A stretch of DNA of 64,000 nucleotides from Thermoanaerobaculia bacterium (GCA_033762835.1 JANRLG010000305.1:23508-87507), one strand, 5' to 3'; positions 2,794-48,606 are shown, counted from the first letter of the stretch. A program made the numbers and translations. Notes: generated by a model not told the origin, from the sequence alone.

Positions 2794-2802
2794 GCGGAGA
2801 TC

Positions 2803-2838: not shown

Positions 2839-2866
2839 AGCGGAGCACTTCGCGCTCTGGGCGCCT

Positions 2867-3058
2867 CTACGCGGCTTCGTTTACTGGGCGACTGGGCAGG
2901 TTCTTGACGACAACCCGGCCCGAAACGGCCTGGCGGGACTGGAGCTGTCGGCAAAACTCCTCGATATCGAACCCGGCAGCCTCGAACAGCGTCTCGCGAA
3001 CCTGCCGAACCTCAGCAACGATCGGATCTTCCCAGGGCTTCTCGGGAGTGTCATTCAT
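2867..3058 (-). CDS. small protein translationally coupled downstream of a PIN gene (possible cognate partner)
   Basis: Starts 'MNDTPEKPWEDPIVAEVRQVRETLFEAAGFDIEEF' (~63 aa). The ATG overlaps the PIN stop (ATGAATGA). The upstream part of ORF 2867..3235 looks non-coding. Confidence 0.35.
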   Translation of the reverse strand: MNDTPEKPWEDPIVAEVRQVRETLFEAAGFDIEEFCRQLQSRQAVSGRVVVKNLPSRPVNEAA

Positions 3059-3539
3059 CGTCGTCTTCCTCGCTGGCAAGCTCTTCCGGGGTGCATAGTA
3101 CCGGAGCCGAGGCACCGAGGTCTCGACAGATGCCCTCGATACGGGGCCGTAGGCGTGCATTGGCAATGTGCGAACAGTTCCAGGTGAGCAAGAAGTCCAT
3201 CCGGTGGTAGGCAGCCGCCGCGATGTGAACTGCATCGGCGCCCGCCTTCGGTGGCAGGGGGACTCGAGCCAGGAGCGCGGCCGCGAATCGGGCCACCTCC
3301 GGGTTGATCCCGAGCAAGGGTAGTTTCGCGACGAGAGCCAAGCGCCGCGCCGCGGCCTCTGGGTCGCCGGCTGCGGCTTCGTCGAGTACGACTTGAGAGA
3401 GAAAGATCTCGAAGTGTCGGTCAGCGGTTCGCCACCACTGATGGGTGATCCTCTGGTGGGCGGCGGTCACCAGATCGCCGCTCGGGTGCGCGGCCAGGTA
3501 GCTGACGATGCTGGTTTCGAGATAGACCCGGGGGCGCAT
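3051..3539 (-). CDS. PIN-domain protein (VapC-like)
   Basis: 162 aa. N-terminal 'MRPRVYLETSIVSYL' typical of PIN nucleases. Acidic C-terminus. Confidence 0.55.
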   Translation of the reverse strand: MRPRVYLETSIVSYLAAHPSGDLVTAAHQRITHQWWRTADRHFEIFLSQVVLDEAAAGDPEAAARRLALVAKLPLLGINPEVARFAAALLARVPLPPKAGADAVHIAAAAYHRMDFLLTWNCSHIANARLRPRIEGICRDLGASAPVLCTPEELASEEDDDE

Positions 3540-3601
3540 CCAGGAATTCTAGTCTCCCTGAGTTTGACAACCCCTCCCGTCTCAGCTTCAATAGCGCCCC
3601 C

Positions 3602-4300
3602 GTGACTCCCCAACGTTTCCCCGGCAATGGCTGGATCGTCCTCGTCGGTGGTGGCGAGTTCAGTTTCGAGGAGACGCTCGATGCCGATGCCGCTTGGGTG
3701 GAGAAGCTGCCCCCCGGGCCGGTGGGCTTCTTACCCGCGGCTTCGGGGTCCATGGACTACGGCGAGCACTTTGCGAACTACTTCCATGAAGTCTTCGGGC
3801 GCGAAGTCGTCACTTTGCCGATCTACCGCGGACGGGATGCGCGGCGGGGCAAAAACGCCGAGCGCATCGCCGAGTGTTCGGCGGTGTATTTGGGCGGCGG
3901 CGTGACGGATCACCTGCTCGAGGCGCTCGCCCCGGGCACCCCGGTACTCGCCGCGCTCGAGGCCAAACTCGCGGCGGGGGGCATCGTCGTCGCCATCGCG
4001 GCGGCGGTCTCGGCCCTTGGCCAGGTGGCGCGCAGCATCCGGATCGGCGAGACCGTGCCCGGTGTCGGCTGGTTGCCGGGGGGAGTCCTCGAGACCAATT
4101 TCGTGACCGAACACGACCGCCGGCTGCGCAAGCTGCTGACCACTCCCGGTGTCGACTGGGGGCTCGGCATCCCGACCGGGGACGCCGTGTTGCTCGGCCC
4201 CGACGGGGTGGTGGAATACGTCGGCGAGGTCTACGGCCTCGCCTCACCGGACGGCCCACTCGAGCCCCTCGGCGAGCCGCTGGAAGACGAACCGCTCTGA
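3602..4300 (+). CDS. peptidase S51 / cyanophycinase-like (class I glutamine amidotransferase-like fold)
   Basis: 232 aa. 'WIVLVGGGEF', 'AVYLGGGVTDHLL' and 'AAAVSALG' patterns. Confidence 0.5.
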   Translation: MTPQRFPGNGWIVLVGGGEFSFEETLDADAAWVEKLPPGPVGFLPAASGSMDYGEHFANYFHEVFGREVVTLPIYRGRDARRGKNAERIAECSAVYLGGGVTDHLLEALAPGTPVLAALEAKLAAGGIVVAIAAAVSALGQVARSIRIGETVPGVGWLPGGVLETNFVTEHDRRLRKLLTTPGVDWGLGIPTGDAVLLGPDGVVEYVGEVYGLASPDGPLEPLGEPLEDEPL

Positions 4301-30147: not shown

Positions 30148-31012
30148 GTTGTGCGTCCTCCTTTCAAACTGGGATGCGCAGAAGAAACGGCGATCTGATC
30201 ACCCGCTGCCCACCGGTTATTTCGGCGAGAATGACGCCGTGCCCCCAAGCCTGCGCTCGTTGCCCGTCGCTGCCTTCGCCCTCGCGGTGGCCGTCCTGAG
30301 CTGCCTCGCCGGTCCCCAGGACCGGGCGCCGGAGGCGGTGCCCGCGGTGGAGTCTCGCGAGGTGGCGTTTCTCGCCGGCTCGATCCACGTTTTGGTCGCC
30401 GGGCCCGACACCGGTCGGCCGGTGCTGCTGCTCCACGGTGCTTTGTTCCAGTCGAGCACGTGGCAAAACATCGGCACGCTGCGTCGCCTGGCGCAGGAGG
30501 GATTCCGGGTCGTGGCCGTCGATCTGCCCGGTTATGGGGCGTCACCGGCCGCGGAGCTGCCGCCCGAGGCGGTGCTCTCGGCGCTGATACCGGCCCTGGG
30601 GCTCTCGCGACCGGTGGTGGTGGCGCCGTCGATGAGTGGTCGCTACGTGTTCCCGTTGCTGGTCGCCGAACCGCAGACTTTCGCCGGGGTCGTGCTGGTG
30701 GCGCCCGCGGGGATTCGGACCTATCGCGCCGTGGTCGAGAACGTGCGTCTGCCCGTTTTGTTGGTCTGGGGTGAGAAGGACGACACCGTGCCTGTGGCGG
30801 AGAGCTACCTGCTGACGACGCGCTGGCCCCAAGCCCAGCGCTTGGTGCTGGAAGGCGCCGGGCACGCTGCCTACTTGGATCGCCCCGAGGCGTTCAACAA
30901 CGCCCTGTTGGCGTTCCTGCGGGGGTTGCCGGCTCCCGGTGGGATTACGGAGCCAACAGTCGCATCGGGTAGTCCGCCGGCAGACGGCGCCGAAACCGCC
31001 CGTCCGCGGTAA
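30146..31012 (+). CDS. alpha/beta hydrolase
   Basis: 'LLLHGALFQSSTW', 'APSMSGRY' nucleophile elbow and 'GAGHAAYLD' His motif. Start may be a later GTG (~30236). The 3' end overlaps a PIN fragment on the opposite strand. Confidence 0.7.
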   Translation: MLCVLLSNWDAQKKRRSDHPLPTGYFGENDAVPPSLRSLPVAAFALAVAVLSCLAGPQDRAPEAVPAVESREVAFLAGSIHVLVAGPDTGRPVLLLHGALFQSSTWQNIGTLRRLAQEGFRVVAVDLPGYGASPAAELPPEAVLSALIPALGLSRPVVVAPSMSGRYVFPLLVAEPQTFAGVVLVAPAGIRTYRAVVENVRLPVLLVWGEKDDTVPVAESYLLTTRWPQAQRLVLEGAGHAAYLDRPEAFNNALLAFLRGLPAPGGITEPTVASGSPPADGAETARPR

Positions 31013-31124
31013 CGAGAACGGCCTTCTGCTGTTCCGCCACGGCCAGGTACGAGGCGTCATAAAACGACACCCCGAAGTTCACGCTCGCGATCCTCGCGCA
31101 CCATTTGCACGATCTCCGCGGTGC
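30945..31124 (-). pseudogene. C-terminal fragment of a VapC/PIN toxin
   Basis: Frame translates 'FYDASYLAVAEQQKAVLVTADGRFRRRL', the canonical PIN C-terminal block. The frame is closed upstream, so the N-terminal ~90 aa are absent. Confidence 0.4.
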
Positions 31125-31305
31125 TCACTTTCGGCCCGTTTCTCCGGAAGGCCGCCAGTTTTTCGATGGCGATTTTTCGGCTGAGGCGAGTCAGCTCGCG
31201 CCGGATCGCGTCGTTGGCGAACCGGCTGCGCTCGCCCGCCGGCACGAGTTCATCGAAATCCGCCCGGACTTCGTCGTCGAGGACCAGATTCACCTTGCTC
31301 GCCAC
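31057..31305 (-). CDS. ribbon-helix-helix (CopG-like) antitoxin, now orphaned
   Basis: GTG start. 'VASKVNLVLDDEVRADFDELVPAGERSRFANDAIRREL' RHH pattern. Sits just upstream of the PIN remnant. Confidence 0.5.
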   Translation of the reverse strand: MASKVNLVLDDEVRADFDELVPAGERSRFANDAIRRELTRLSRKIAIEKLAAFRRNGPKVSTAEIVQMVREDRERELRGVVL

Positions 31306-31420
31306 AGGAGGCTCCTTTCGAGAAGACGTTTCGTCTCTCCGCAGCGCAGAGAAGCTCGGTCCGAATTTCAACTCCGGGGTCCGTGGGTCGTCTCTTGCGG
31401 CGGACCCGACCGTTCGGCCC

Positions 31421-32449
31421 TCAGTTTCGCGTACTGAAGATCGTCTTCTCCACGGGATCGTCCAAGAGCTGCCAGCCCGGGCACGACTCGCCGTCGCACG
31501 GCAGGCCGGTGAACCGCCAAATCGTGCCATCGTCGTGGCTCTTGTACAACGATCTCGGGCCGGTGGAGATCTGACGGATCCGCGGATCCCGATCGAGTTG
31601 GAGCCAGCCACTGCCGGTGTAGCGCCAAATCCCGCCGTCGCTGTGCTGCTTGTAGAGCGCGTCGCCGCCGGTCACGATCGAGACCGTTGCCGGGTCACTG
31701 GCGAGCAGCTGCCATCCGGGGCAGGAGGCGCCAGTGCAGGGCGTCTCCGTGTAGCGCCAAATCTCCCCGCCCGATCGCAGCTGATAGAGCACCACCCCTC
31801 GGCTGCCGGTTAGGCCGGCGGTGATCTCTTGGGTGCTCGAATGGTTGTCGAGGAGTTCCCACCCGAAGCACGATCCACCGCTGCACGCCGCTCCTGTATG
31901 ACGCAGGATGCTCCCATCCTCGCGTCGCTGGTAGAGCTCGGTCCCGGCAGCGATGACTTCCCGGGTCGTCGAACGGTTGTCGAGTTGCTCCCAGCCGGAG
32001 CATGAGTCTCCGCTGCAGGGCGTCCCGGTGTAGCGCCAGACGCTGCCGTTCCCGAGGCGCTTGTAGAGACTCTCCGCGCCGGCGGCGACGATCGCCACGA
32101 TCGCGGTGTCGTTGTCGAGTTTTTCCCACCCCGGACACGATCCGTTGCTGCACGGCGTGCCGGTGTAGCGCCAGATGCTGCCGTCGGAGCGACGTTGATA
32201 AAGCGGGGGCGCGAAAGGGGGCGCCCCGGTGGCGGTGAACCCGCCCGCCGGCACCCCTCCGGCGGTGATCTCCCGGGTGCCGGGATGGTTGTCGAGCAAG
32301 CGCCACCCCGGGCAAGCGGTTTCGGTGCAGGGCAACCCGGTGTAGACCCAGAGATTGCCGTTGTCGTGCAGCTGGTATACCGGTTGCGCCGACAGGGCCG
32401 ACGCGCTCGCCAGTGTCCATCCGACGAAGATCCTCTGAAAATGTCTCAT
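31421..32449 (-). CDS. secreted protein with 7 tandem ~42-aa Cys-containing repeats (probable beta-propeller)
   Basis: Signal peptide 'MRHFQRIFVGWTLASASALSA'. Repeat consensus 'LYQRRxDGSIWRYTGTPCSGxSCPGWxxLDNxxxTxEIxAG' occurs seven times. GGAGGAA Shine-Dalgarno. Confidence 0.6.
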   Translation of the reverse strand: MRHFQRIFVGWTLASASALSAQPVYQLHDNGNLWVYTGLPCTETACPGWRLLDNHPGTREITAGGVPAGGFTATGAPPFAPPLYQRRSDGSIWRYTGTPCSNGSCPGWEKLDNDTAIVAIVAAGAESLYKRLGNGSVWRYTGTPCSGDSCSGWEQLDNRSTTREVIAAGTELYQRREDGSILRHTGAACSGGSCFGWELLDNHSSTQEITAGLTGSRGVVLYQLRSGGEIWRYTETPCTGASCPGWQLLASDPATVSIVTGGDALYKQHSDGGIWRYTGSGWLQLDRDPRIRQISTGPRSLYKSHDDGTIWRFTGLPCDGESCPGWQLLDDPVEKTIFSTRN

Positions 32450-37668: not shown

Positions 37669-38532
37669 ATGTCGACCCATACCGCCACCGTAGGCCCCGC
37701 CGACCATTTCGAGTATCTCCGCCACCGTGTGCGGTTCGATCCGGCGGCGGCGCCCCGGCTGTTGGCCGAGCTTCTTCGGGAGGACCGTGCCGTGGAAATG
37801 CCCCGCGACCCGCAGGTTTGGACGGCCCTCGTCGAACACGGTGATTCGAACACTCTGGCCCGCGCCGTTCTCTCCGGCCTCCAGCCGGGGCAGATGCAGG
37901 TGTTGAGTCTCGATGCCGGCTTGCGCTTCGACTGCCTCGACGCCCTGGAGCGGCACGCCTGGGCCCTGGTGGCCGAGGATCGGGCGCCCGTCCTGCCACC
38001 GGATGGTTATCCGGCCCTGTTGGCGGAGAAAGTCTTCGAGCCTCTGGGGATGTTCGCCGAGGCGGCGGCCCTCTATGCCCTTGGCCATGACGATCGCGAC
38101 GCCTCCGGCAAACCCCTCGATCGCCTCACCCGGGCCGTGATGTGTTACCGCTTGGCGCGCAGTCTCGGCCGCCTGGCCCAAGACGAACCGGAATGGCGGT
38201 CCTGTGCTCTCGAGCTCATGGCGAGCGCCTGCCACGCCTGTGAACCCAAGTCGCCGGAACGGCTCGGCAGTGACCCGACGGGCCTACGGCTTCGCTTGCA
38301 TGGTTATCAGTGGCTGGGCGCCCGCTGGGCCGCCGATGGTCGCGAGGCCGAGGCGCGCCAGGCTTTCGAACGGGCGATCCGCGCGGCCCTGGAGCTCGGG
38401 GAAGGGGAGTTGGCAGTGGCTCTCGAGGCCTTCAGCCGTTACTCGTTGGGTCCGGCGAACGATGGAGTTCCAGTTCCCACTCTACCGTCGCCCAATCGGC
38501 GGCCGTCGAGCGGATCACGTTCGTCGCGCTGA
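37669..38532 (+). CDS. hypothetical alpha-helical protein
   Basis: Long ORF with coding-like composition. Its 3' end overlaps the convergent caspase gene. Confidence 0.3.
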   Translation: MSTHTATVGPADHFEYLRHRVRFDPAAAPRLLAELLREDRAVEMPRDPQVWTALVEHGDSNTLARAVLSGLQPGQMQVLSLDAGLRFDCLDALERHAWALVAEDRAPVLPPDGYPALLAEKVFEPLGMFAEAAALYALGHDDRDASGKPLDRLTRAVMCYRLARSLGRLAQDEPEWRSCALELMASACHACEPKSPERLGSDPTGLRLRLHGYQWLGARWAADGREAEARQAFERAIRAALELGEGELAVALEAFSRYSLGPANDGVPVPTLPSPNRRPSSGSRSSR

Positions 38533-40417
38533 CCCGGCCGCGGAGCCAGGCCGCGAGGAACTCGTCGAGCGGGGAGCGGAACACCGTCGGCGGCACGGGC
38601 GGCGCGGCCGGCGCCGTCAAAGCTGGTAGCTCCAACCACTCGAAACTCGCTGGGCGCTCGGAGGCGATAACTTTCAGCACCGCCCGGCCGCGTTCGGCGC
38701 CGGCCGGCAGCTCGCCCACGGCGAGCAGCACGGGGGTGCTCTCCCCGGGGCCCAAGCTCGACCACGGGCCGAGGGGCCACAGCTGCTCGATGCTCCAGTC
38801 GGCACCGAGCGACAGGAGTGTCACGTACAGCACACGGTCGCTGTGATTGGCCGCGGCCAAGGTGAAGCTCCGGCCCGCCGGGAAATGGCCGGGCTCGGTG
38901 ACGATCCGGCGGTCGATGGCGAGCGTGACGGCGTCCCGCAGTTGGCTCGCCGAGTCGCGGTTGCGCAGGGTTCTCACGCCCTCGAAGCGCGCCCAGTGGG
39001 CGAGGCGCCGAACGAGTTCGGAGGCGGCGTTCGGTGCGTTCGAATCGAGGGGCGGACCGAGCGCGAGGATCTCGCCCAGAGTGGTGGTGACGGCAAACCG
39101 GCCATCCGCGCCGACCTCGATCCGAAGATCCGCGACTTCGTCCGCCGCCGCCGCCCGCAAGAAGGATTCGCGCTCCGGACTCGGCGCGGTCAGCAGGACC
39201 GCCAACTCGGTCAGCTCGGCGGCCGCTCCGACCAACCGTGCCCGTCGGAGCAAGCGCCACGGCGCGGGAGACAGCAGACCCAAGAGCTCGCCGGGCTCGA
39301 TCCGCACGGGAGGACCGTCGCCGACCGCGTGAACGACGCTGCTGTGATCGTCGACCGACTGGGCTTCGAAAACGGTGGTCGCGAACGCACCCAGGGGAAA
39401 GCGGAAGAGGGCGCCCGGGGCGAGGCCTTGCAGAGCCCCGGCGGCCAGTCGGAGCCCGCCATCTTCCCTAGTTTCGAGCACGGCCACACCCCGCGGCGCG
39501 GCGACCGGCTCCCGACCCAGGAAAACCCGATCGAGAACTCCCTCCGCTTGCGGCGTTTGGCGCGAGCCGGCCAGGAGCAAAGCGGACTGGGTGCGCCGGA
39601 GCAACTCGCGGTAGGTCGCCCCGCCCGGCCCGGCGCGCCGCAGAGCCGACAGCAACGAAGCCGTGAACAAGCCGCCCACGCTGCCGTCTTCGAGCGGGGC
39701 TTCGAGGGCCAACTCGTGGGCGGCACAGGCCGCCAGGAGGGTGTGGCGCGAGCCCGCGAGCCAGGGATGGCAGGCGGCGTCGCCCCAGCCAGCGGCGCGA
39801 CGGGCGGCGAAGGCCCGCAGTGTGGCGAGATCGGCGACCGCCGACGGGAGTTCGTCGCAGGCGCGGCGCAGGCAGTGCGCGCCGCGCACGCGGACCCGGG
39901 GCTCGGCGCGAAGAGCACCGCCGGCGAAGCAGGCATCGAGGATGACCACGGTATCGATCTCGCGGGCGGCGAGCTCCGCGAGTAGATAGGCCAACTCGAG
40001 ATCGTGGAGGAGCCGGCCTTCGGCAGCGGCGGCATCGTAGGGCACTAGGCACTCGTCGAGACCGGGGCGGCGCTCCGGGAGCAGGCTCGGCACCCGCACG
40101 CCGTGACCCGAGAAGTAGAACAGGACGATGTCGCCCGGCTCGGCGCGGGTGGCCATCCGCCGCCAAGCGCCGACGATTTGGGCATAACCTGGGCGATCCG
40201 CGGGGGCCTCGCGGGGTTCGGCGGTGAGTCCGCGGGAGGCGGTCAGCAGGCACAGGTCCTCGGGTGGCAGTCCGAGGTCGCGCTCTAGGTAAGCGTGAAA
40301 CTTGCGCGCATCGCGCACGCCGCCGTCGAGGCCTTCGAAATCGAACTCGCGTCCAATCGGGCTGTCGGCGTAGCGGTCGATGCCGACCACCAGAGCGTGG
40401 GCTCGCGGCCGGCTCAT
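38432..40417 (-). CDS. caspase-domain (peptidase C14) protein with ~430-aa C-terminal extension
   Basis: Caspase core runs 'ALVVGIDRYADSP' to 'IVLFYFSGHGV' (His) to 'VVILDACFAGG' (Cys). Start ATGA-coupled to the upstream gene. Confidence 0.75.
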   Translation of the reverse strand: MSRPRAHALVVGIDRYADSPIGREFDFEGLDGGVRDARKFHAYLERDLGLPPEDLCLLTASRGLTAEPREAPADRPGYAQIVGAWRRMATRAEPGDIVLFYFSGHGVRVPSLLPERRPGLDECLVPYDAAAAEGRLLHDLELAYLLAELAAREIDTVVILDACFAGGALRAEPRVRVRGAHCLRRACDELPSAVADLATLRAFAARRAAGWGDAACHPWLAGSRHTLLAACAAHELALEAPLEDGSVGGLFTASLLSALRRAGPGGATYRELLRRTQSALLLAGSRQTPQAEGVLDRVFLGREPVAAPRGVAVLETREDGGLRLAAGALQGLAPGALFRFPLGAFATTVFEAQSVDDHSSVVHAVGDGPPVRIEPGELLGLLSPAPWRLLRRARLVGAAAELTELAVLLTAPSPERESFLRAAAADEVADLRIEVGADGRFAVTTTLGEILALGPPLDSNAPNAASELVRRLAHWARFEGVRTLRNRDSASQLRDAVTLAIDRRIVTEPGHFPAGRSFTLAAANHSDRVLYVTLLSLGADWSIEQLWPLGPWSSLGPGESTPVLLAVGELPAGAERGRAVLKVIASERPASFEWLELPALTAPAAPPVPPTVFRSPLDEFLAAWLRGRVSATNVIRSTAADWATVEWELELHRSPDPTSNG

Positions 40418-41748
40418 GGCCGTCGAGGCACCGCCAGGCGCACCGCCGGGTCCCCGATCAGGACGTAGGAGCGCGCGTCTCGCGCGGCGATCCACAGGAT
40501 GCCCAGCCAACGGGGGTCGACGTCGCCTCGCTCCCCTTCGAGCGCTTCGTGCAGCTCGTGCAGGATGTCGCCGTAGCGCGCGCCGAAGCCATGCAGTGCG
40601 TCCCCCACGCGGCGTCCCTCGAGCAGGCCCCGCAGGGCCTCGCGGTAAACCTCGCGGCCGCCGTCGAGCCGATAGGAGTAGGGCCAGGCGAGGTCGACGT
40701 GGCCGATGAAGGCGAGTGCCCCGCCCCGGGGGTGGGTGAGCAGGCGCCGCGGCAGTGCCGAGACGAACGCCGAGGGCGCGAGCGGCGCGGGTTCCGCGCG
40801 ACCGAGGGCGGGGGCGAAGCCTTCGACGGCGGGCGTGCCCGCGGTGCAGCAGCCGAAGGCGAACACGATCAGACCGGCGACGTCGAGCTCGTCGTCGATG
40901 TCTTCAGCCGCGAGGAAGTGGCCACCGCTCATGCCCGTCCCAGGCCAGTCGGCGCAAACCACCGCGCCCTGCCCGGCGGCTTGACGCTCGTCGGCAGCAG
41001 GAAAGGCCAAGCCGTGGCTGGCGAGAAAAACCAGCGCCGGCGCCTCGGACCCGCCGAGCAGCGACCGGATCCGGTCCTTGGTAGCGCCTGCGCCGATCTC
41101 GGCGATCAGCGACCAATCCGGCTCGTCGGTCAAAGCCTCGGCCAGGGGCGCCAGCAACTCGTCGGCCGACAACTCGGTCGCCCGGTCGCCGGCAAAACGC
41201 GGCCCCGCCAGCGCCCACGAGCGCTGCCGCCGACGCCGACCGCTTTCCGCCGCCACGACGCCGCGGGCATAACGCTCGTAGTCGTCGGGCGTAGCGAAGT
41301 CCAGGCGCCCCACCGAGCGCGCCTGGTCGAAGGCGTACTGGCGCTCCCAGGGCAAACCCTCCGGTTCCCCCACGAGCAGCAAATAGTCGGGGTCCGTGAC
41401 CTCGTCCCGAGCCGCCCCGAGCGGTACCAATCCGAGACCCTTGCGCGTAGCGGCCTCCGGCACCAGTTCGAACTCTCCCACCCGCTCCCCGAACCGCTGT
41501 CGGCGCCAAGCGATCAACGGCTCCAGCGCCTCCCGCAGCTCCAAAGCCCCCGGCCCGAAAGCCACCCCCCAGCGCTCATACCCCGGCGCCCGCGACCGCG
41601 CCTTCGAGCCTCCAAACTGCATCCGCTCCCGCCCCGCGAGCAAAGCCCGACCCACCGCCGCCGGTTCCGCAGCGCCCCGGAACGGCTCGCCCCGCAAACC
41701 ATCGAGGCCGTTCCAGATGTGGGTGTCGTCGGGGTGGGGGGCGGGCAT
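40414..41748 (-). CDS. putative clan-CD (caspase/CHAT-like) cysteine peptidase homologue
   Basis: 'ALVFLASHGL' and 'LIVFAFGCCTAG' form a candidate His/Cys dyad in caspase-like order. The N-terminal 250 aa are unassigned. Confidence 0.45.
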   Translation of the reverse strand: MPAPHPDDTHIWNGLDGLRGEPFRGAAEPAAVGRALLAGRERMQFGGSKARSRAPGYERWGVAFGPGALELREALEPLIAWRRQRFGERVGEFELVPEAATRKGLGLVPLGAARDEVTDPDYLLLVGEPEGLPWERQYAFDQARSVGRLDFATPDDYERYARGVVAAESGRRRRQRSWALAGPRFAGDRATELSADELLAPLAEALTDEPDWSLIAEIGAGATKDRIRSLLGGSEAPALVFLASHGLAFPAADERQAAGQGAVVCADWPGTGMSGGHFLAAEDIDDELDVAGLIVFAFGCCTAGTPAVEGFAPALGRAEPAPLAPSAFVSALPRRLLTHPRGGALAFIGHVDLAWPYSYRLDGGREVYREALRGLLEGRRVGDALHGFGARYGDILHELHEALEGERGDVDPRWLGILWIAARDARSYVLIGDPAVRLAVPRRP

Positions 41749-41966
41749 CAGGCGCCTTTCGACTTGCCGCGAGCACTCCGAGTTGTCGGCCGAGGCTTAT
41801 TGCGCTTCGGTGCAGCTTTCGCCTTGGGCGTAGCGGGAGCTTGGAAGCTGTTGGTCGGGGGGTCGGGGGGGACTGGATCCCCTCCAGGCTTTGTCCCCTG
41901 GGCGGGCGTCGGAGAAGGGGGATTGTCCTCCGGACGGAAGACTTCTGCTTTGTGTTCATCGTGCAT
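41748..41966 (-). CDS. small Pro/Lys-rich basic ORF coupled to the clan-CD gene
   Basis: 72 aa. Stop overlaps the next ATG by 1 nt (TGATG). The composition is not decisive. Confidence 0.2.
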   Translation of the reverse strand: MHDEHKAEVFRPEDNPPSPTPAQGTKPGGDPVPPDPPTNSFQAPATPKAKAAPKRNKPRPTTRSARGKSKGA

Positions 41967-42054
41967 GGTTCTTGGTCTCCTAAGCGGGTATCAAGTGCCC
42001 CAGGAGGAGCTGCCGTCGCCCGCTAGGTGCAATACCCGAACTCTTTCCAGAGGT

Positions 42055-44937
42055 TTAGTTCCCTGGCGCTCCGAAAATTTGAAAGGCTGCCCAAAGAGCT
42101 GGATGATGTCGGCCGACGCGGCTTCTCTGATTTAGCTGAGCCCTGCGAAGTGCCAAGTGTGGGTCGAGCCCACTCCCGAGCGCGTCGTAAAAGTCCTCCA
42201 TCAGTTCGGAGGTGGCCTGGTTGTCGATCGGCCACAGGCTCGCAAGAACTTGTTTGGCTCCAGCCCCCAGGATTGCATTTGTTAGGCCGTACAGACCCTC
42301 ACCGCGAACGTCGCCAACTCCTGACTCGCATGCAGCGAGTGTCACGAGGCTTGCCGAAAGTTCAAGCTCCCTGATTTCGAATGCATAGACGCTCTTACCG
42401 AGTCCTGAGCCGTCAAAGATCAAAGCGGAGGAGTCGGGCCAACTGGAATCTGCTGACCCGTGGGAAGCGATGTGCAATTGGCAGAAGGGCTTGAGGCCCG
42501 GGCCGAGAACATCAGTTCGGGTAGCTCTGATCAAGGTAATGTCTGAGCTGTACGCTCTCAGAGCTCGGCCGTCATCAGAGAAGTCGCTGCTCCCTTCCGA
42601 GGTAGTGATCAATCCAACACCCGAGCAGTTACGTTGGCGGCGTCGAATCTCCAAGACGCTTGCCAGGGACGGGGCGATGGAGAGTCCGAATCGATCCACG
42701 AGTTGCGCTTCGGGCGTCTCAGGATCTGCAACGACGGCAAACGGAACGCGATGAAGGGCTCCATCGGGACTGATCTGTAGCCTCTGGGCCCAGATCTTTG
42801 GGGTAAGGGGTGCCCAAACCAGTTTCGAGAACGCTGAAGCCGCGGTTCGAAAGTGCCCTTCTCTATCGGAAGATCGCGATTCTGCGGCGGCAATGGCAAG
42901 GTCGAGAGCAACACGCTCGATCTCAGCGCCTGGCGGCAACGAGACCAGATCGAAGTGATTCCGGTCGATAATCCAGGCGAGGCTTCGTTCCCTTCCGAGA
43001 AAGAAGGAGATGAATTGCTCATCTGGCCTGAGCTGCGCCTTGAGTTCGTTTAGACTGAGCCTTGCTGACGACGACGGGAACGAAGGCTTCTTGGCAGGTC
43101 TTCTGCGGAGGGCAGCACTGAGTTGAATTTCGGCTCTCTGTCTAGAGAATAGAGCTCTCAGCTCGCGCCAACCCGGCGGCATGCGTCGCGTTAGGTCCGC
43201 AATCTTCTGGTCGAGTTGGGCCAGCTCCGGCCGGAGCCCCAGAGAATAGAGACTGCTCTCCTCTTGCCGGTAGGGGGCCCGCTGGAGTCTTTCCCTCAAG
43301 GCCGGAGCCCGTGAGCCGTCAACAATCATGAAAGCCTGCTCGGCATAGTGTTGATCCCCTTGACGATCAGCTGCGGACAGAAGCAAATTGACTGCGGCTT
43401 CGAGGTGTTGAGATCGGGTAGACCAGAATGAGACCCTGAGGGCTTCAGAGTCAGGATCCTGACGCTGTTGTTCCATTTCGCTCAGCGACAATTGGAGTCT
43501 ATCCACGGCCTCGCGCAAATGGCCTTCTTCGTAGAAGATTTTCGCCTCGACTCGATGCACGAATGCACGGGTGCTGGCATCGGCAAGTAACGGGAATTCC
43601 AGGGCTTTCGATAGTGCATCACGGGCCGATTGCAGTCGGCCACGTTCTATTTCCGAAAGAGCCAGGAAGGCCCAAGATGCAGCGTGTTCTGGACCTCTAG
43701 GACGGAGCTCGGAAGACTTTCGGAATAACTCAGAGGCGCTGGCGTAGTTCCCCGCATCAAAGTTGGCCCAGCCGCCAGCGTATGCGATCTCCGCCTGGAC
43801 GGCCAAGGGCAGCGTTGTCGGCACTATCTCTGCGATGGTCTGAATAGCCTCAGAGGGTTTTTCGAGTCCAATCTGTATGAGGGCATATGCCACCAAGGCT
43901 CTCGCCTTCGTGTCCGGTGTCTCAGCCAGCTTGTACTGACGCTTCGTTACGCGGAGTGCCTCCTCAAGACGGCCCAAGCGTCGCAGGGCTCGACTAAGAT
44001 CCCGCAGTGCCTCAGAAAGTTCTCTGCGATTTTCTGCGACCGAGAGAACTCCCGTTTGGAATCGCAGGAAATCGACTGCGGTTTCCAGCCGCCCGATGCG
44101 CATTGCTTCGAAAGCCATGCAGGCGGCTCGGCGGGCCGCCGCATGTGGAAGTTGCGACGAAAGGCGCGCAAGGACGACCTCGCTGAAGTAATCGAATTCG
44201 GATACGTCTCCCTCGGCAATGAGGTGTCTTACTATTTCGCATCCAGCTTCGCCGATTAGCTCGATCTCTTCTATCTGAAGAAGGGGTTTCCAGATTGAGC
44301 GGTAGAGGGCGTAGCTCTGTTCGCTGTCCCCCTGCTCTTTGAGCACGAAAGCTAGATGCCGCTGGGCCACTACGGCCCAGCGCGGTTCAGCGAGGCCAGC
44401 CCAAAGTGCGACGGCACGCCGGTGGTGCTCCTCGGCCTGGGCGTAGAGCGGTTCAGGCTGCTGCTCCTCAAGACGAATACCCTCGAACAGTTCCCTCGAG
44501 GCTTGCGTTCGACGAACGTCATAGGCAGAAGGCGATCTAGGTCCATCTACTGATGCCCGGAAGCGGCCATCGAACTCCTCCCACGCATACACCTCCACCC
44601 GCAGCACCTCGGCCTTTTCCGCAATCCAAGACATCGTCTCGGCGCCGTGCGTTCCGGTGTACGAATTCCCATGAAACAGCAGCTTCCCCCGCGAGTCGTA
44701 CAGGCGGATCCCGGCGTCGATGTCGTCGTTCTGCTCGACGTCGATACGGAGGTATTCCCCGGCTTTCATGGGGAAGAAGTAGTTGCGGCTCTCACCGATG
44801 CCCAGGGTGCGCTCGTCGAGGGGGCGCAGGGGGGCCGGGCCGGTGGGCGCGGCGTGGGCGGCCCTGGCGAGGGCCAGGGGGAGGAGGAGGGCCAGGAGGG
44901 CCGCCCCGGCGAGGTTACGGCGCGCGGTCGGTGGCAA
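42055..44937 (-). CDS. secreted TPR-repeat protein with C-terminal CHAT protease domain
   Basis: Proposed TTG start gives signal peptide 'PPTARRNLAGAALLALLLPLALARAAHA'. TPR-like helical repeats follow. CHAT block 'LHIASHG ... LVTLAACESG ... VLASLWPIDN'. The body is lower-GC than its flanks. Confidence 0.75.
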   Translation of the reverse strand: MPPTARRNLAGAALLALLLPLALARAAHAAPTGPAPLRPLDERTLGIGESRNYFFPMKAGEYLRIDVEQNDDIDAGIRLYDSRGKLLFHGNSYTGTHGAETMSWIAEKAEVLRVEVYAWEEFDGRFRASVDGPRSPSAYDVRRTQASRELFEGIRLEEQQPEPLYAQAEEHHRRAVALWAGLAEPRWAVVAQRHLAFVLKEQGDSEQSYALYRSIWKPLLQIEEIELIGEAGCEIVRHLIAEGDVSEFDYFSEVVLARLSSQLPHAAARRAACMAFEAMRIGRLETAVDFLRFQTGVLSVAENRRELSEALRDLSRALRRLGRLEEALRVTKRQYKLAETPDTKARALVAYALIQIGLEKPSEAIQTIAEIVPTTLPLAVQAEIAYAGGWANFDAGNYASASELFRKSSELRPRGPEHAASWAFLALSEIERGRLQSARDALSKALEFPLLADASTRAFVHRVEAKIFYEEGHLREAVDRLQLSLSEMEQQRQDPDSEALRVSFWSTRSQHLEAAVNLLLSAADRQGDQHYAEQAFMIVDGSRAPALRERLQRAPYRQEESSLYSLGLRPELAQLDQKIADLTRRMPPGWRELRALFSRQRAEIQLSAALRRRPAKKPSFPSSSARLSLNELKAQLRPDEQFISFFLGRERSLAWIIDRNHFDLVSLPPGAEIERVALDLAIAAAESRSSDREGHFRTAASAFSKLVWAPLTPKIWAQRLQISPDGALHRVPFAVVADPETPEAQLVDRFGLSIAPSLASVLEIRRRQRNCSGVGLITTSEGSSDFSDDGRALRAYSSDITLIRATRTDVLGPGLKPFCQLHIASHGSADSSWPDSSALIFDGSGLGKSVYAFEIRELELSASLVTLAACESGVGDVRGEGLYGLTNAILGAGAKQVLASLWPIDNQATSELMEDFYDALGSGLDPHLALRRAQLNQRSRVGRHHPALWAAFQIFGAPGN

Positions 44938-47188
44938 GGAGTTCGACGGGGTGGTAGGCGACGAGCCGGGGTTGGTCCGTGGCCAGGTCGTTGAGCTCGA
45001 GCCGATAGTTGCCGGGCGAAAGTCCCCAGAATTGGGCGCAGAGGGCCTCACCGCAGGGCTTGGCCGAGGTGGTGGCGACGACGGCATCGGTCATCGAGTC
45101 GAGCAACGCAGCTTGCGGCTCGGCGATTTCACCGAGCGTCCGGGCGTCGATCCGGAAAAGCGCCTTGTGGGGCCACCGGCCGAGCTCGAGGGTCGTGACG
45201 TCGTCGTCGCCGCGGAGCGTGCTCACGGGGACGATGTACGTTTCCGGCACCGGTGCCGTCGCGAACATCACCCCGCCCAAGCCGGCCGCGAGCCCCGCGG
45301 AGGCGGCCAGCCACTTCCAGGCGTGGCGCTTCGGTGCTGGGGCTGTGGTCGCGGTGGGGAACTGGAGGACGGGTGAGACTGGCATCACCTCGGCGTCTTT
45401 GCCCTCGGCTTCGATCGCGGCTTGAAGCCGGATCCGATCCGCCGCTTGCCAGGAAGCGAGCTCCTCGGGGGAAACCACGTCCGCGGTGGGACTTGAGAAG
45501 GCCTGCCAGTCGAGCACGGACTCGGCGAGCTCCGGGTTCTTCGCGAGCTGATCCTGGTACTTCTCGGCCTCGGCCTCGCTCAGCACCCCCGCGAAGTACA
45601 AAGCCGACCGCTCGTCGGTCGAGTCGGCCGTCTTCCCCGGAGGGGTGGGAAACCGATTCACGTTGTCCATGGTCCGAGGCCCGGCAGTAGCGCCCTTCAG
45701 ATCATGATCAAGCTTCTCCGCTTTGGCAAGCGGACCACCGCCAGCCGCGCCCGCACCGACCCGCCGAAACGCCCCCGGCCTCGAGATCTCCTCCTGGACC
45801 TGCCGGACGATCGCCTGCGTCAGCTCCCGCCGCTCTGCGGCCTCGCGGAGGATGGCCCAGGAAGCGAGAGTTTCCCGACCCACACCGAGGGCCTCGAAGG
45901 TCTTTCCCATGGAGATGGCTAGAGATAGGACCTGGTCAGTGCGGTTCTTCTCTAGAAGAAGTAGCGTTAGGTCCAGCGTAACAAGAGCAGCATTAAAAAT
46001 GTGGCCTCTCTCAATGTATATTTCTTGAGCGCGGTCCAGGCAGTCTTCTGGACCTCCTATCCGTTCGTCACCGGCCAGCGCTAGTCCCAAGACCCAAAGC
46101 CTACCGGGTTCCCAGAAGGGCCTTTTCAGATACTCGGGCTTTAGCTTCTCGAGAAGTTCTTGCGCTTCACTGGGTCGTCCGTACTTAGCTAGCAGGACCG
46201 CCCGGCAGTGCCAAGCATGCAGCAGAAGGTCGCTATCCGCCGCTTCTTGCGCTAGGCAAGCTGCATCTACCACTGTGCGGAGGCCTCGCTTCAAGTCGCC
46301 GGATACTTCATGGATCATAGTCGCCGAGAGTTTCGCCGAGATGGCTTCGCGCAACCGGTGCAGGTGGTCGTAGAGGATATGCGAGATATTAGAGTATGTT
46401 AAGGCGTCACGAAAATTTCTGAGATCCCTGGCGATGGAGGCGCTGAAGCTCGTGGCTTCTGCCCAAAAGACGGGATTCCGGACCGCGTGATGGGAAGCCG
46501 TTTGGATTGCCTCTTCGATTATCTTTTTCGCCTGATGCAGGTCTCCGAAGCACCGCATTGAGTTGCCTCTGAAGAGATCCGCCCGGACCTGAAAAGCTAA
46601 GTCGGTCGTAGAGCCAGTAGCCGCCCAGCGAGACACTACTTCTGCCCACGAGCCCGAAGCTCGTGGGCCTTCTGGCAACGCCGCCCGTGCCTCCACCAAG
46701 CAAGCGCTCGCCACCGCCTCCCCTGCAAATGCCTCCGGCTCGCGCTTCACCAGCTCCAACCGCTCCGTCGCCGACAGCGGCCTCAACCGCTCGATCGCCC
46801 TTCTGGCTCGCTCTTGTTCTTCGGCGCTGAAAGTGGGCGCGGGTGGTGGCGGGACTCGGCCGAGGTCTTCGACCGGAATGCCGATCAGGCGGGCGGCCTC
46901 TTCGCGGGCTTCGCGCTCCTCGCTGATCCCAACGTCGAGGCGGGCTTTGTCTTCGCTTTGCCAGAGGGTGAGGGTGGCGGTCGGTAGAGAGTCGGCGGAA
47001 GGGGGCGCGAAACACTGCCAGTCGAGCAGGGTCTCGGCGAGGTCGGGATCGTGGGCCAGGTCGTCTTGGAGGGTCTCGACATCCTCGGGACACAGCCGGC
47101 CGCCGAAATAGGCTGCCGCGCGTTCGCCGGCGGCGAGATTCGGTGGACTTTCTCCGGGGCGCCTCGGCAGCCCGTGGGTCGCGTTCAT
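44915..47188 (-). CDS. anti-sigma-factor-like protein with duplicated N-terminal module, TPR-like insert, TM segment and periplasmic C-terminal domain
   Basis: N-terminal 'ERAAAYFGGRLCPEDVETLQDDLAHDPDLAETLLDWQCF' recurs at ~aa 520 as 'ERSALYFAGVLSEAEAEKYQDQLAKNPELAESVLDWQAF'. A TM helix 'WKWLAASAGLAAGLGGVMFATAP' follows. Lies 28 nt downstream of the ECF sigma gene. The middle is lower-GC. Confidence 0.5.
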   Translation of the reverse strand: MNATHGLPRRPGESPPNLAAGERAAAYFGGRLCPEDVETLQDDLAHDPDLAETLLDWQCFAPPSADSLPTATLTLWQSEDKARLDVGISEEREAREEAARLIGIPVEDLGRVPPPPAPTFSAEEQERARRAIERLRPLSATERLELVKREPEAFAGEAVASACLVEARAALPEGPRASGSWAEVVSRWAATGSTTDLAFQVRADLFRGNSMRCFGDLHQAKKIIEEAIQTASHHAVRNPVFWAEATSFSASIARDLRNFRDALTYSNISHILYDHLHRLREAISAKLSATMIHEVSGDLKRGLRTVVDAACLAQEAADSDLLLHAWHCRAVLLAKYGRPSEAQELLEKLKPEYLKRPFWEPGRLWVLGLALAGDERIGGPEDCLDRAQEIYIERGHIFNAALVTLDLTLLLLEKNRTDQVLSLAISMGKTFEALGVGRETLASWAILREAAERRELTQAIVRQVQEEISRPGAFRRVGAGAAGGGPLAKAEKLDHDLKGATAGPRTMDNVNRFPTPPGKTADSTDERSALYFAGVLSEAEAEKYQDQLAKNPELAESVLDWQAFSSPTADVVSPEELASWQAADRIRLQAAIEAEGKDAEVMPVSPVLQFPTATTAPAPKRHAWKWLAASAGLAAGLGGVMFATAPVPETYIVPVSTLRGDDDVTTLELGRWPHKALFRIDARTLGEIAEPQAALLDSMTDAVVATTSAKPCGEALCAQFWGLSPGNYRLELNDLATDQPRLVAYHPVELLATDRAP

Positions 47189-47216: not shown

Positions 47217-47774
47217 TCAGGAAGCGACGGCGCGGCCGGGAAGATCGGTCGAGAGGGCTTCCTTGAGCTTCAACTTGGCCTGGAACAGCTGCGACTTGAC
47301 GGTTTCGATGGAGGTCAACATCAGCGTCGCGATCTCTTCGTACTTGAAGCCTTCCAAGTAGAGCAGGACACAACGCCGCATGCGCGGCGGCAACTGCTCG
47401 ATCGCGACGCGTACTTGTTGCTCGCGTTCACCGGCCAGGAACTCGTCCAGGGCGTCGGGCTCCTCGGTGGCGAGTCCTTCGGCAAGCGGTTCGTCCTGCA
47501 CCTCGGGGTTCTCGATCGACACGAACGTCCCGCGCGGGCGGTTCTTTTTCGCCATGCCGTCCCTGAGGTGGTTCAGGAACAGGTTGCGGGTAATCGTGAA
47601 GATCCAAGGTGCCAGGGATTCCACCGTGCCTCCGTCCGTCGTCTTCCAGTTCTTCCAAACCCGGAGGAACACGGTTTGGGTGAGGTCACGCGCGAGATCT
47701 CTTTCCACCCCCTTGTGGAGGTAGAAACCGAGGACCCGCGGGTAGAAGTGCTGGTAGGTGGCTTCGTAGTCCAT
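47217..47774 (-). CDS. ECF (sigma-24-type) RNA polymerase sigma factor
   Basis: 185 aa from 'MDYEATYQHFYPRVLGFY'. Region 2 'TQTVFLRVWKN' and region 4 'YEEIATLMLTSIETVKSQLFQAKLKL'. Confidence 0.85.
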   Translation of the reverse strand: MDYEATYQHFYPRVLGFYLHKGVERDLARDLTQTVFLRVWKNWKTTDGGTVESLAPWIFTITRNLFLNHLRDGMAKKNRPRGTFVSIENPEVQDEPLAEGLATEEPDALDEFLAGEREQQVRVAIEQLPPRMRRCVLLYLEGFKYEEIATLMLTSIETVKSQLFQAKLKLKEALSTDLPGRAVAS

Positions 47775-48502: not shown

Positions 48503-48606
48503 GTAGGGGCGCTGCTTGCTGCGCCCCTGGTCCCCCGTTGGCACAGCTGTCAGGCGATGGGGCCCGAAGCCCTGCCAGCGGGGCGCAGCCAGCAGCGCCC
48601 CTACAA
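48503..48606. repeat. pair of near-identical GC hairpins in inverted orientation
   Basis: 'ggggcgctgcttgctgcgcccc' and 'ggggcgcagccagcagcgcccc' ~55 nt apart, downstream of the RRM gene. Confidence 0.3.

Follow-up and report, generated by a model that had tools for sequence, protein, structure and literature searches.

Two low-GC blocks in a GC-rich stretch of a Thermoanaerobaculia MAG, 64,000 nt long and referred to here as the window (positions are counted from its first letter), are probably variable allelic cassettes of a conserved sigma factor/CHAT protease signaling operon. The cassettes would then be old allele lineages under purifying selection and neither insertions nor hypermutated DNA. 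An initial annotation of the window had noted the low GC and read it as foreign DNA recently inserted into a native sigma/anti-sigma pair. The compositional observation is partly confirmed, being milder than originally described, and the interpretation is supported in part only.

The sigma/CHAT operon

The blocks lie in a five-gene operon encoding an ECF sigma factor, a 757-aa membrane protein, a TPR-CHAT protease predicted to be exported, a C25-like protein, and a C14 caspase. These genes and a small ORF are arranged as follows:

47217..47774, minus strand, ECF sigma factor gene, 185 aa (Pfam Sigma70_r2 and r4_2)
44915..47188, minus strand, 757-aa single-pass membrane protein (SF066_22555 at NCBI), whose start lies 29 nt past the sigma gene
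42055..44937, minus strand, TPR-CHAT protease gene, 960 aa from the NCBI start (Pfam CHAT, E value of 1.3e-46)
41748..41966, minus strand, 72-aa proline/lysine-rich small ORF from the ORF list, between the CHAT and 444-aa genes
40414..41748, minus strand, 444-aa conserved protein whose C-terminal region is C25 (gingipain)-like (Pfam Peptidase_C25, E value of 1e-7)
38432..40417, minus strand, caspase-like (C14) protein of about 661 aa (Pfam Peptidase_C14, E value of 1.8e-18)

The sigma gene scored 81.6 bits against the NCBIfam model TIGR02937 (sigma70-ECF; cut-off, 42.9). Its reading frame extends upstream without a stop to a GTG at 47996, but its orthologues start at MDYEATYQ. It has a GC3 of 0.82 and is 97% identical to its counterpart in the related assembly L004. 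At the other end of the operon, the 444-aa protein (GC3 of 0.85, 95% identity to L004) and the caspase-like protein (GC3 of 0.83; PADLOC "caspase," E value of 6e-27) are likewise of normal composition. The 72-aa ORF varies in its first half but not in its second, which is conserved, and its stop codon overlaps the start of the next gene; the counterparts annotated in L001 and L016 have 78 and 69 aa, respectively.

The 757-aa protein comprises N-domain A (aa 1 to 100), a TPR-like solenoid (aa 122 to 469), N-domain B (aa 507 to 600), a transmembrane helix at about aa 625 to 647, and a predicted periplasmic C-domain (aa 650 to 757). The two N-domains reflect an internal duplication (aa 1 to 91 versus 507 to 595; 40% identity, E value of 2e-19). 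In the AF2 model the solenoid had a pLDDT of 85 to 96 and the remainder was low; Foldseek returned LGN- and Rap-type peptide-binding TPR proteins. The TPR core belongs to a family of about 400 proteins, relatives of ~460 aa from which were aligned. As the members of this family are mostly stand-alone proteins, the core is, in a deep sense, an accretion onto a sigma-linked membrane protein. We infer an anti-sigma role for the 757-aa protein from two features only, its gene position and its topology. The whole protein gave no anti-sigma match in Pfam (E value of ≤1), PDB, NCBIfam, or PADLOC, and neither did the duplicated N-domain in Pfam (E value of ≤1), a PDB profile search, the whole-protein PDB search, or a Pfam search of the stand-alone paralogues; assignment of the N-domain to a known anti-sigma family was dropped on the strength of the Pfam and PDB searches. 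A zf-HC2 or CHCC zinc-binding anti-sigma domain was absent from the 757-aa protein in Pfam (E value of ≤1), NCBIfam, PADLOC, and PDB profile searches. Its DPDL motif aligns to CPAC, CPHC, or CDAC in some stand-alone paralogues (P0009-P0012).

The CHAT gene overlaps the stop of the upstream gene by 23 nt and is a separate gene in all orthologues. Its product consists of a signal peptide (aa 1 to 30), a beta-sandwich (aa 38 to 134), a TPR solenoid (aa 138 to 611), and the CHAT domain (aa 640 to 956). The dyad residues are H822/H826/C870, with the His and Cys conserved in five orthologues. From the signal peptide as read in the sequence (ending ALARAAHA, before AP), we infer that the protease is exported to the periplasm. 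The AF2 model (pLDDT of 88.6, pTM of 0.85) was matched by Foldseek in the PDB to Csx29 (8eey_B, E value of 7e-17), separase, and DdvA (8rw5, E value of 8e-14; 8rot, E value of 9e-13). A sequence-level PDB search returned designed TPRs only, with no DdvA or Csx29 match, and the likeness to these two proteins is therefore drawn from the fold comparison.

Extent and depth of the low-GC blocks

The window has a mean GC of 0.677 (67.7%) with a standard deviation of 0.033 across 1-kb windows, and its strongest compositional outliers are the following two blocks:

41873..44600 (about 41.87 to 44.7 kb), minus strand, low-GC block 1, a variable cassette comprising the TPR, the linker, the CHAT domain, a spacer, and ~30 codons at the start of the 72-aa ORF
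45946..46678, minus strand, low-GC block 2, codons about 171 to 415 of the 757-aa protein, a hypervariable cassette

All of the twelve lowest-GC 1-kb windows (0.565 to 0.579) started within 42.1 to 43.4 kb, and the minimum over 300-bp windows, 0.527, was found at 45901. The initial annotation was right to place two blocks here, and a 40-nt run that it quoted was located at 45991 to 46030, but edges and depth had to be corrected. Its extents of 42.1 to 44.3 and 45.7 to 46.7 kb give way to a wider block 1 (about 41.87 to 44.7 kb) and a block 2 of 45.95 to 46.68 kb. Its figure of 40 to 55% GC was overstated, as block GC was 0.53 to 0.60 at 300 bp, with averages of 54 to 60%, and values of 0.45 to 0.49 were reached in single 100-bp windows only. 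TPR-like repeats are indeed encoded in both blocks (12 to 13 helices of the solenoid in block 2), but block 1 also holds the whole CHAT domain, the spacer, and half of the 72-aa ORF.

The GC, GC3, codon adaptation, and tetranucleotide statistics all set the blocks apart. Block GC3 was about 0.60 compared with 0.84 ± 0.06 in the other genes of the window, 3.7 standard deviations below the mean, and the tetranucleotide distance was maximal at 42 to 43 kb (z = 4.2). A CAI-like index gave 0.32 to 0.34 in the blocks against 0.70 ± 0.05 for 15 reference genes (block 1, GC3 of 0.60 and index of 0.34; block 2, GC of 0.53 to 0.60, GC3 of 0.59, and index of 0.32). Per 50 codons, GC3 was 0.44 to 0.72 in the blocks versus 0.8 to 0.95 in the flanks, and within the CHAT gene it dropped from about codon 110 to 120. 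GC1 and GC2 were only slightly decreased, so that the drop is a third-codon-position effect; other lower-GC stretches, such as that at 24 to 27 kb, retain a GC3 of about 0.9. Codon usage in the blocks is nearly flat, with the rare codons AGA, CTA, and TTA enriched. The trough also spans a noncoding spacer. Short clear spacers had a GC of 0.60 to 0.66, the GC3 level of the cassettes; intergenic GC was taken from these spacers only, and the pooled value of 0.677 was discarded because the gene caller had missed several genes. Since the GC3 steps lie within genes, an explanation by expression level, that is, by whole-gene codon bias, was ruled out.

Breakpoints and divergence at the block edges

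At the block edges, nucleotide identity to close relatives drops in a step; the 757-aa gene goes from about 0.92 to about 0.44, and the CHAT gene from 0.95 to 0.68. In the comparison with L004, the maximum chi-square was 168 at CHAT codon 185 (nt ~44385), with 200 permutations yielding values of ≤15.9. Two-breakpoint models gained 302 to 360 in log-likelihood. In the 757-aa gene, the two-breakpoint fits fell at codons 171 to 172 and 404 to 424 in all three pairs among the window, L004, and L015, for which amino acid identity was 25 to 29% in the cassette versus 91 to 95% in the flanks. The CHAT cassette was 64 to 75% identical versus 96 to 98% in its flanks, and DNA alignment placed the downstream breakpoint of block 1 near nt 41873. 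The stepwise drops and the chi-square maximum indicate that the blocks differ in ancestry from their flanks, and to this extent the initial annotation was upheld.

Nei-Gojobori estimates were used to compare rates. Between the window and L004, the CHAT cassette had a dS of 1.7 to 1.9 and a dN/dS of 0.13 to 0.15, compared with a dS of 0.15 to 0.27 and a dN/dS of 0.10 to 0.19 in the flanks; dN and dS were thus both 4 to 12 times those of the surrounding genes, with an equally low dN/dS. One CHAT allele is common to L004 and L016 (about 93% nucleotide identity, with similarly close flanks, in a sample of few genomes), and in this pair the cassette dS of 0.15 to 0.25 is at the flank level (0.19). 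The raised dS with unchanged dN/dS, together with the flank rate in the shared-allele pair, indicates old alleles under purifying selection and no faster clock. In the 757-aa cassette, dS is saturated in every pair, and old alleles and extreme acceleration are indistinguishable for that cassette. No identical allele was found in two clearly divergent backgrounds among the six assemblies.

Recent synonymous changes in the low-GC part comprised 23 S>W and 14 W>S, which argues against upward amelioration, and the per-site W>S rate was 0.13 in the flanks versus 0.075 in the cassette, from small counts. Polarization with the saturated L001 outgroup, which gave a large excess of S>W over W>S in normal genes, was set aside as a parsimony artifact.

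The locus in other assemblies

The locus is known from the window and five other assemblies, so few alleles are represented. Two scans of genome contigs and a first one of metagenome contigs turned up no relatives; of the contig scans, only a second one of metagenome contigs yielded loci. Gene order, domain architecture, and trough were the same in L001/L003/L005, L004, L015, L016, and L017, and the binned GC3 profiles of the assemblies were in register. CHAT GC3 in five genomes was 0.60, 0.61, 0.60, 0.60, and 0.75, with neighboring genes at 0.84 to 0.88. Between the window and L001, the synonymous sites of the blocks were saturated, with a codon retention of about 0 to 0.1. Because the trough is shared even by this saturated lineage, the low-GC DNA is not a recent insertion, contrary to the initial annotation. 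The gene order sigma/245-aa/TPR-CHAT also occurs in L019.

A homologue search gave a similar answer. The best match to the variable segment of the window among 1.84 billion cluster representatives was the orthologous locus, at 37% identity, and the closest homologues of the low-GC segments all lie in close relatives whose local composition is alike, the outcome that the initial annotation had named as counting against its own reading. Across 5.8 billion proteins and the 1.84 billion representatives, no cassette relative outside the locus exceeded 37% (HVR) or 74% (CHAT) identity. No donor was found for the putative foreign additions, and every relative has the trough; that description stands only for the TPR core of the 757-aa protein, and in the deep sense of an accretion. 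Low GC3 is also no general property of TPR-CHAT genes or of the paralogous TPR family, as trough-free CHAT genes were present in two other high-GC hosts (GC3 of 0.94 and 0.86) and the stand-alone paralogues of the TPR core had a GC3 of 0.78 to 0.89.

Proposed origin of the low GC3

We propose that homologous recombination in the conserved flanks carries the cassettes from one background to another, while the alleles themselves, at ≤68% nucleotide identity, would be too diverged to form heteroduplex with one another. The force that holds GC3 near 0.85 elsewhere, whether GC-biased gene conversion (gBGC), codon selection, or both, would then be inactive inside the cassettes. Synonymous sites would relax to the AT-biased mutational equilibrium, giving flat codon usage and a GC3 of about 0.60, as in the spacers. 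This step of gBGC or relaxed selection is proposed because the composition looks like an equilibrium; gBGC has been reported to be linked to bacterial recombination (PMC4450053).

Several other explanations were considered. The best of these, which we still regard as unlikely, is recurrent import, in which cassettes circulate among lineages, some of lower GC, and their composition mirrors that pool and not a local relaxation. The recombination breakpoints and deep divergence of the alleles would fit such circulation, as would the spread of allele GC3 (0.57 to 0.75) and a flat codon usage compatible with a host of about 55 to 60% GC. However, every recovered host flank is high in GC (GC3 of 0.84 to 0.88), no relative outside the locus passed the identities given above, and the cassette GC3 equals the local intergenic GC.

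It is improbable that the trough was selected for AT-rich or rare codons, be it for slow translation during folding of helical repeats, for scarcity of a dangerous protease, or for nucleoid-silencer sites. Although the trough is domain bounded, persists at saturated divergence, and is enriched in AGA, CTA, and TTA, overall usage is flat with no skew to particular codons. Moreover, the trough is missing from other TPR-CHAT genes and paralogous TPR proteins of equally GC-rich hosts, the adjoining caspase and C25-like genes are normal, and the noncoding spacer is within the trough too.

Recent horizontal acquisition, in which a lower-GC foreign TPR-CHAT gene and a TPR piece entered a native sigma/anti-sigma pair and have yet to ameliorate, appears very improbable. 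It would account for the atypical GC, GC3, tetranucleotide, and codon usage and for a block ancestry unlike that of the flanks, but not for an architecture and trough common to five other assemblies, one of them at saturated dS. No closer relative was found anywhere searched, including viral contigs scanned with the CHAT protein, and the recent changes lack a W>S bias. The window has no tRNA, no mobility genes were found at the locus, and repeats in 37 to 49 kb were limited to short chance-like matches, with no border repeats. The block borders fall inside open reading frames. Rfam gave no match in 41 to 48.7 kb at an E value of ≤0.1 and none across the window at the gathering score.

We give hardly any credence to local hypermutation or a fast clock (DGR-like or error prone) as the cause of both the divergence and the AT drift. 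Cassettes of 0.7 to 2.5 kb far exceed DGR variable repeats in size, and 37 to 49 kb contains no template repeat. The joint rise of dN and dS in the blocks would be expected from such a process, but dN/dS is unchanged and the CHAT allele shared by L004 and L016 has diverged at the flank rate. Finally, an artifact of helical-repeat amino acid composition (K, E, L, and Y are abundant in TPR proteins, and GC1 and GC2 are slightly down), of chance, or of chimeric assembly can practically be dismissed, since the effect sits at third positions, the GC3 and tetranucleotide deviations are large (3.7 standard deviations and z = 4.2), and six independent assemblies from different samples have intact, in-frame genes with the same pattern.

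Possible function of the locus

On the reading of the blocks as allelic cassettes, the variable parts may be ligand recognition modules, one a cytoplasmic TPR solenoid of the peptide-binding type and the other the putatively periplasmic TPR-CHAT. With the TPR core in the cytoplasm and the CHAT protein in the periplasm, a simple coevolving contact pair is excluded. The exported CHAT protease may act on the periplasmic tail of the 757-aa protein and thereby release the sigma factor, as a split DdvA would, and allele diversity could be maintained by frequency-dependent selection, for example, by phage or other biotic signals. We tentatively raise the possibility that the locus is an unrecognized polymorphic two-compartment sensory/immune receptor of Acidobacteriota, a split DdvA-like ECF switch with many ancient recombination-shuffled specificity alleles at the cytoplasmic TPR and exported CHAT modules, comparable to NLR/MHC or pherotype loci, and that GC3 troughs can be searched for generally, as the footprint that allele classes excluded from recombination in this way leave in GC-rich bacteria.

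In a GC-rich genome, recent foreign DNA need not be the origin of a sharp low-GC block, a caution for composition-based island callers; here the blocks appear to mark long-lived hypervariable alleles at a fixed locus. The change from about 0.88 to about 0.60 within single reading frames offers a natural test of what keeps bacterial GC3 high, as the step coincides with the point where homologous pairing between alleles would fail. The locus also points to a split, polymorphic relative of DdvA, the only characterized TPR-CHAT anti-sigma system, and the variable cassettes suggest which parts recognize the signal.

Comparison with known systems

In Myxococcus xanthus, DdvS/DdvA is an ECF sigma factor with a transmembrane anti-sigma factor whose periplasmic domain is a TPR-CHAT, and a site 1-like protease role for CHAT in starting regulated proteolysis has been proposed for DdvA (PMC11506125). 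The portion of that account drawn on here describes neither allelic hypervariability nor a GC3 trough. The window resembles DdvS/DdvA in that an ECF sigma gene precedes those for a single-pass membrane protein and a predicted periplasmic TPR-CHAT with a His-Cys dyad. It differs in that the TPR-CHAT is encoded separately, with a signal peptide of its own and a beta-sandwich at the N terminus, that the membrane protein has two unclassified N-domains and a cytoplasmic TPR solenoid with no detectable zinc-binding anti-sigma domain, and that C25-like and C14 caspase-like genes, and not CBASS or CRISPR genes, lie downstream. The predicted fold of the CHAT protein matches DdvA (8rw5 and 8rot), as well as Csx29 and separase; there was no match to DdvA at the sequence level.

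Type III-E craspase comprises the TPR-CHAT protein Csx29 with Csx30 and RpoE. Csx29 (8eey_B) was the top Foldseek match of the window TPR-CHAT, whereas the window protease is predicted to be exported and scored only 29 bits against the NCBIfam Csx29 model (cut-off, 300). Neither Cas7-11/gRAMP nor a CRISPR array came to notice at the locus in the general annotation. In craspase too, a genetic link joins the CHAT protease to an ECF-type sigma factor (PMC10028731).

Replacement flexible genomic islands are exchanged by homologous recombination via conserved borders, with mostly synonymous bordering substitutions and low dN/dS, and phage selection has been proposed (PMC4033161). As in these islands, all strains keep one locus with one function but fill it with unrelated sequence. 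Unlike these multigene surface structure clusters, the replaced units in the window are intragenic domain cassettes, measure 0.7 and 2.5 kb, and belong to a regulatory operon; one of them is cytoplasmic.

In Bacillus subtilis comQXP', variability extends over comQ and comX and into the 5' end of comP, with a boundary within a gene (PMC6334282). The variable part is the ligand specificity part. The window encodes a TPR solenoid and a TPR-CHAT protease in place of an isoprenyl transferase, a peptide, and a kinase sensor, belongs to another phylum, and has two separate cassettes in two adjacent genes. It nevertheless resembles the pherotype locus in that close relatives carry, at a fixed locus, poorly conserved versions of a signaling module with one boundary intragenic, a likeness that extends equally to the staphylococcal agr groups.

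Two blocks of low third-position GC in a sigma factor operon

The source contig is assigned by NCBI to a Thermoanaerobaculia MAG. The genes concerned form an operon that lies on the minus strand throughout, as follows.

47217-47774, minus strand, ECF sigma factor
44915-47188, minus strand, 757-aa protein
42055-44937, minus strand, TPR-CHAT protein, 960 aa, with signal peptide
41748-41966, minus strand, proline/lysine-rich 72-aa ORF separating the CHAT and 444-aa genes
Minus strand, 444-aa protein with a C25-like end
Minus strand, C14 caspase-like protein

The 72-aa ORF has a stop codon overlapping the next start codon, and counterparts were called in the relatives L001 (78 aa) and L016 (69 aa). 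An inverted repeat at 48503-48604 (25 nt, 96% complementary, 52-nt loop) was found ~500 nt upstream of the sigma-containing open reading frame, ~730 nt from the likely start codon of sigma.

The 757-aa protein consists of N-domain A, a TPR solenoid, N-domain B, a TM helix and a 110-aa periplasmic domain, with an internal duplication (aa 1-91 versus aa 507-595, 40% identity, E value of 2e-19). Its residues ~120-470 align with a family of ~400 TPR proteins of ~450 aa, mostly stand-alone. The AlphaFold model was confident for the solenoid and poor for the remainder, and the predicted solenoid was similar to TPR proteins of the peptide-binding type, LGN and Rap among them. No anti-sigma family was matched by this protein, which we regard as a putative anti-sigma factor. 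The CHAT protein (model pLDDT of 88.6) comprises a signal helix, a beta-sandwich (aa 38-134), a TPR solenoid (aa 138-611) and a CHAT domain (aa 640-956) in which His822, His826 and Cys870 are conserved. Its top structural matches were the craspase Csx29, separase and the Myxococcus anti-sigma DdvA.

The GC content of the window is 67.7% (standard deviation of 0.033 in 1-kb windows). The two lower-GC blocks reported in the initial annotation were present: all twelve of the lowest 1-kb windows start at 42.1-43.4 kb (GC of 0.565-0.579), and the 300-bp minimum, 0.527, is at 45901. The 40-mer quoted there maps to 45991-46030. The GC of 40-55% claimed for the blocks was overstated, since both measured 54-60% and 45-49% was reached solely by single 100-bp windows. 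Sliding-window GC, GC3, codon adaptation and tetranucleotide composition, the checks proposed with that claim, all marked the blocks as outliers. GC1 and GC2 were nearly unaltered, the drop being carried by third codon positions, with a GC3 per 50 codons of 0.44-0.72 in the blocks versus 0.76-0.95 in the remainder of the same two genes. Among called genes of ≥150 aa (mean GC3 of 0.84 ± 0.06), the CHAT gene was the lowest at 0.63. Codon usage within the blocks was near flat, the codon-adaptation index was 0.32-0.34 versus 0.70 ± 0.05 (reference set of 15 other genes), and the tetranucleotide distance peaked at z = 4.2. A phase-GC scan, which needs no gene calls, also returned the blocks as the longest and deepest anomalies of the window. 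Elsewhere in the window, lower-GC stretches (24-27 kb, for example) retain a GC3 near 0.9 and are amino-acid effects. Codon periodicity was also weak at 2400-3900 and 30600-32400 (max-phase GC of <0.74). An ORF at 3051-3539 (minus strand, GC3 of 0.74) gave a PIN-domain match below threshold (E value of 1.6e-4, 22.7 bits, cut-off 23.6); no Pfam match was obtained for the ORFs at 31.0-32.4 kb.

The trough is conserved in relatives

An identical gene order was found in five other assemblies, represented by a groundwater lineage (L001/L002/L003/L005), L004, L015, L016 and L017. Identity of the window proteins is 42-74% with the groundwater lineage and 73-97% with L004. In all recovered relatives the GC3 trough lies at the same codons: the CHAT gene has a GC3 of 0.60, 0.61, 0.60, 0.60 and 0.75 versus 0.84-0.88 in neighbouring genes, and the middle of the 757-aa gene shows a like dip. 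Comparison of the window with the groundwater lineage gave a synonymous codon retention of ~0-0.1 for the blocks, which amounts to saturation. Since the trough survives synonymous saturation in independent lineages, the block composition is an equilibrium and not a remnant of recent transfer. The view that the blocks were recently inserted, the main point of the initial annotation, is contradicted by the shared gene order and trough in five other assemblies, one of them at saturated dS. Another phylum as their source is likewise rejected.

The low-GC blocks as probable replacement cassettes

Protein identity to L004 is high outside the blocks and falls within them.

Protein identity, window versus L004
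Sigma factor: 0.97
757-aa protein, aa 1-150: 0.93
757-aa protein, aa 151-450: 0.43
757-aa protein, aa 451-757: 0.92
CHAT protein, aa 1-100: 0.96
CHAT protein, aa 101-650: 0.75
CHAT protein, aa 651-960: 0.64
444-aa protein: 0.95
C14 caspase-like protein: 0.87

Nucleotide identity to relatives drops stepwise at the cassette edges. The best-fit breakpoints of the 757-aa gene were at codons 171-172 and 404-424 in 3/3 pairs (nt 46678 and ~45946), and that of the CHAT gene was at codon 185 (nt ~44385; chi-square of 168 versus ≤16 in permutations). The downstream boundary is near nt 41873, inside the 72-aa ORF, whose N-terminal half is within the variable cassette and whose C-terminal half is conserved. 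These breakpoints match the edges of the low-GC blocks, and the proposal that the blocks differ in ancestry from their flanks is thereby borne out. At aa 173-400 of the 757-aa protein, pairwise identity among the alleles of the window, L004 and L015 is only 25-29%, which makes them as distant from each other as from the stand-alone paralogues.

Between the window and L004, the CHAT cassette has a dN of 0.22-0.28, a dS of 1.7-1.9 and a dN/dS of 0.13-0.15, and the flanks have a dS of 0.15-0.27 and a dN/dS of 0.10-0.19. L004 and L016 have one CHAT allele in common, with a cassette dS of 0.15-0.25 and a flank value of 0.19; given this equality, an intrinsically faster clock in the cassette is rejected. 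The allele lineages carried by the window and L004 split far earlier than their flanks, each evolving under purifying selection, a pattern that is the signature of replacement via homologous recombination in conserved flanks. In the cassette of the 757-aa protein, dS is saturated in every pair, so that old alleles and extreme acceleration look alike there.

Two smaller irregularities were observed. CHAT codons 121-195 (~44350-44577) have a dS of 0.83 between L004 and L016, versus mostly 0.15-0.25 elsewhere in the gene, and are closer between the window and L004 (0.38); this is probably a second, small recombination patch within the low-GC3 zone. The sigma gene (47217-47774) has a dS of only 0.085 to L004, with 95% identical codons at conserved residues, and neighbouring genes have 0.15-0.44, which points to unusually strong constraint or to a patch of recent recombination.

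Origin of the low GC

The most economical account, we infer, has three steps. Elsewhere, some force would lift GC3, perhaps GC-biased gene conversion, reported to follow recombination in bacteria (PMC4450053), and/or codon selection. This force would be inactive inside the cassettes, where alleles are too divergent to pair, and synonymous sites there would rest at an AT-biased mutational equilibrium. The cassette GC3 of ~0.60 equals the GC of clear short spacers (0.60-0.66). A live rival is that the cassettes were drawn from a wider, lower-GC allele pool. The search for nearest relatives in other phyla yielded no donor in other taxa, the closest match to the window's variable segment being the orthologous locus at 37% identity; the CHAT protein had four orthologues and, beyond them, distant relatives only, and nothing was found in viral contigs. 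Upward amelioration was set aside because recent synonymous changes in the shared L004/L016 allele were 23 S>W versus 14 W>S. Low GC3 as a protein-family trait was rejected given TPR-CHAT genes with a GC3 of 0.94 and 0.86 in two other GC-rich hosts and paralogous TPR genes at 0.78-0.89, as was expression level, since the GC3 steps fall within reading frames.

Relation to known systems

The order sigma/245-aa protein/TPR-CHAT recurs with a distant TPR-CHAT homologue on an unrelated contig (L019, 2652-7045); an S8 peptidase follows, and a TIR protein is encoded close by. An ECF sigma factor also lies near the distant TPR-CHAT homologue P0020 (JGI 3300041966; ECF sigma/Ser-Thr kinase/154 aa/TPR-CHAT/DUF4384). 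Linkage of sigma factors to separate TPR-CHAT genes may be widespread. Those relatives of the TPR core that stand alone (L006-L014) had no sigma linkage. At L013 (4512-7422) and L014 (4452-7392), a repeated cassette encodes a Pterin_4a-like protein, an XRE-type HTH protein, a 142-172-aa ORF, a 97-98-aa ORF and a TPR protein, with at least 7 copies in one groundwater assembly, 2 of these sharing a contig. The last ~60 residues of these paralogues (AALVTLDW...AAERRELTRAV) are 73-99% identical, compared with just ~40% elsewhere.

Conservation in the operon extends over the sigma factor, N-domains A and B, the TM helix and periplasmic tail, and, in the CHAT protein, the beta-sandwich. Two parts vary, namely the TPR solenoid in the cytoplasm and the TPR-CHAT in the periplasm. 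This division suggests that the variable parts recognise changing ligands.

The feature is best read as a replacement cassette that lies within genes, carries a conserved GC3 trough and belongs to a split DdvA-like operon. Exchange by homologous recombination in conserved flanks has likewise been proposed for replacement genomic islands (PMC4033161), and the cassettes are reminiscent of the comQXP' pherotype locus, where the variable region ends within comP (PMC6334282). The nearest characterised system is DdvS/DdvA, in which a transmembrane anti-sigma with a periplasmic TPR-CHAT is proposed to be its own site-1 protease (PMC11506125). In DdvA as described there, the TPR-CHAT is part of the anti-sigma, whereas in the window it is a separate protein with predicted export.
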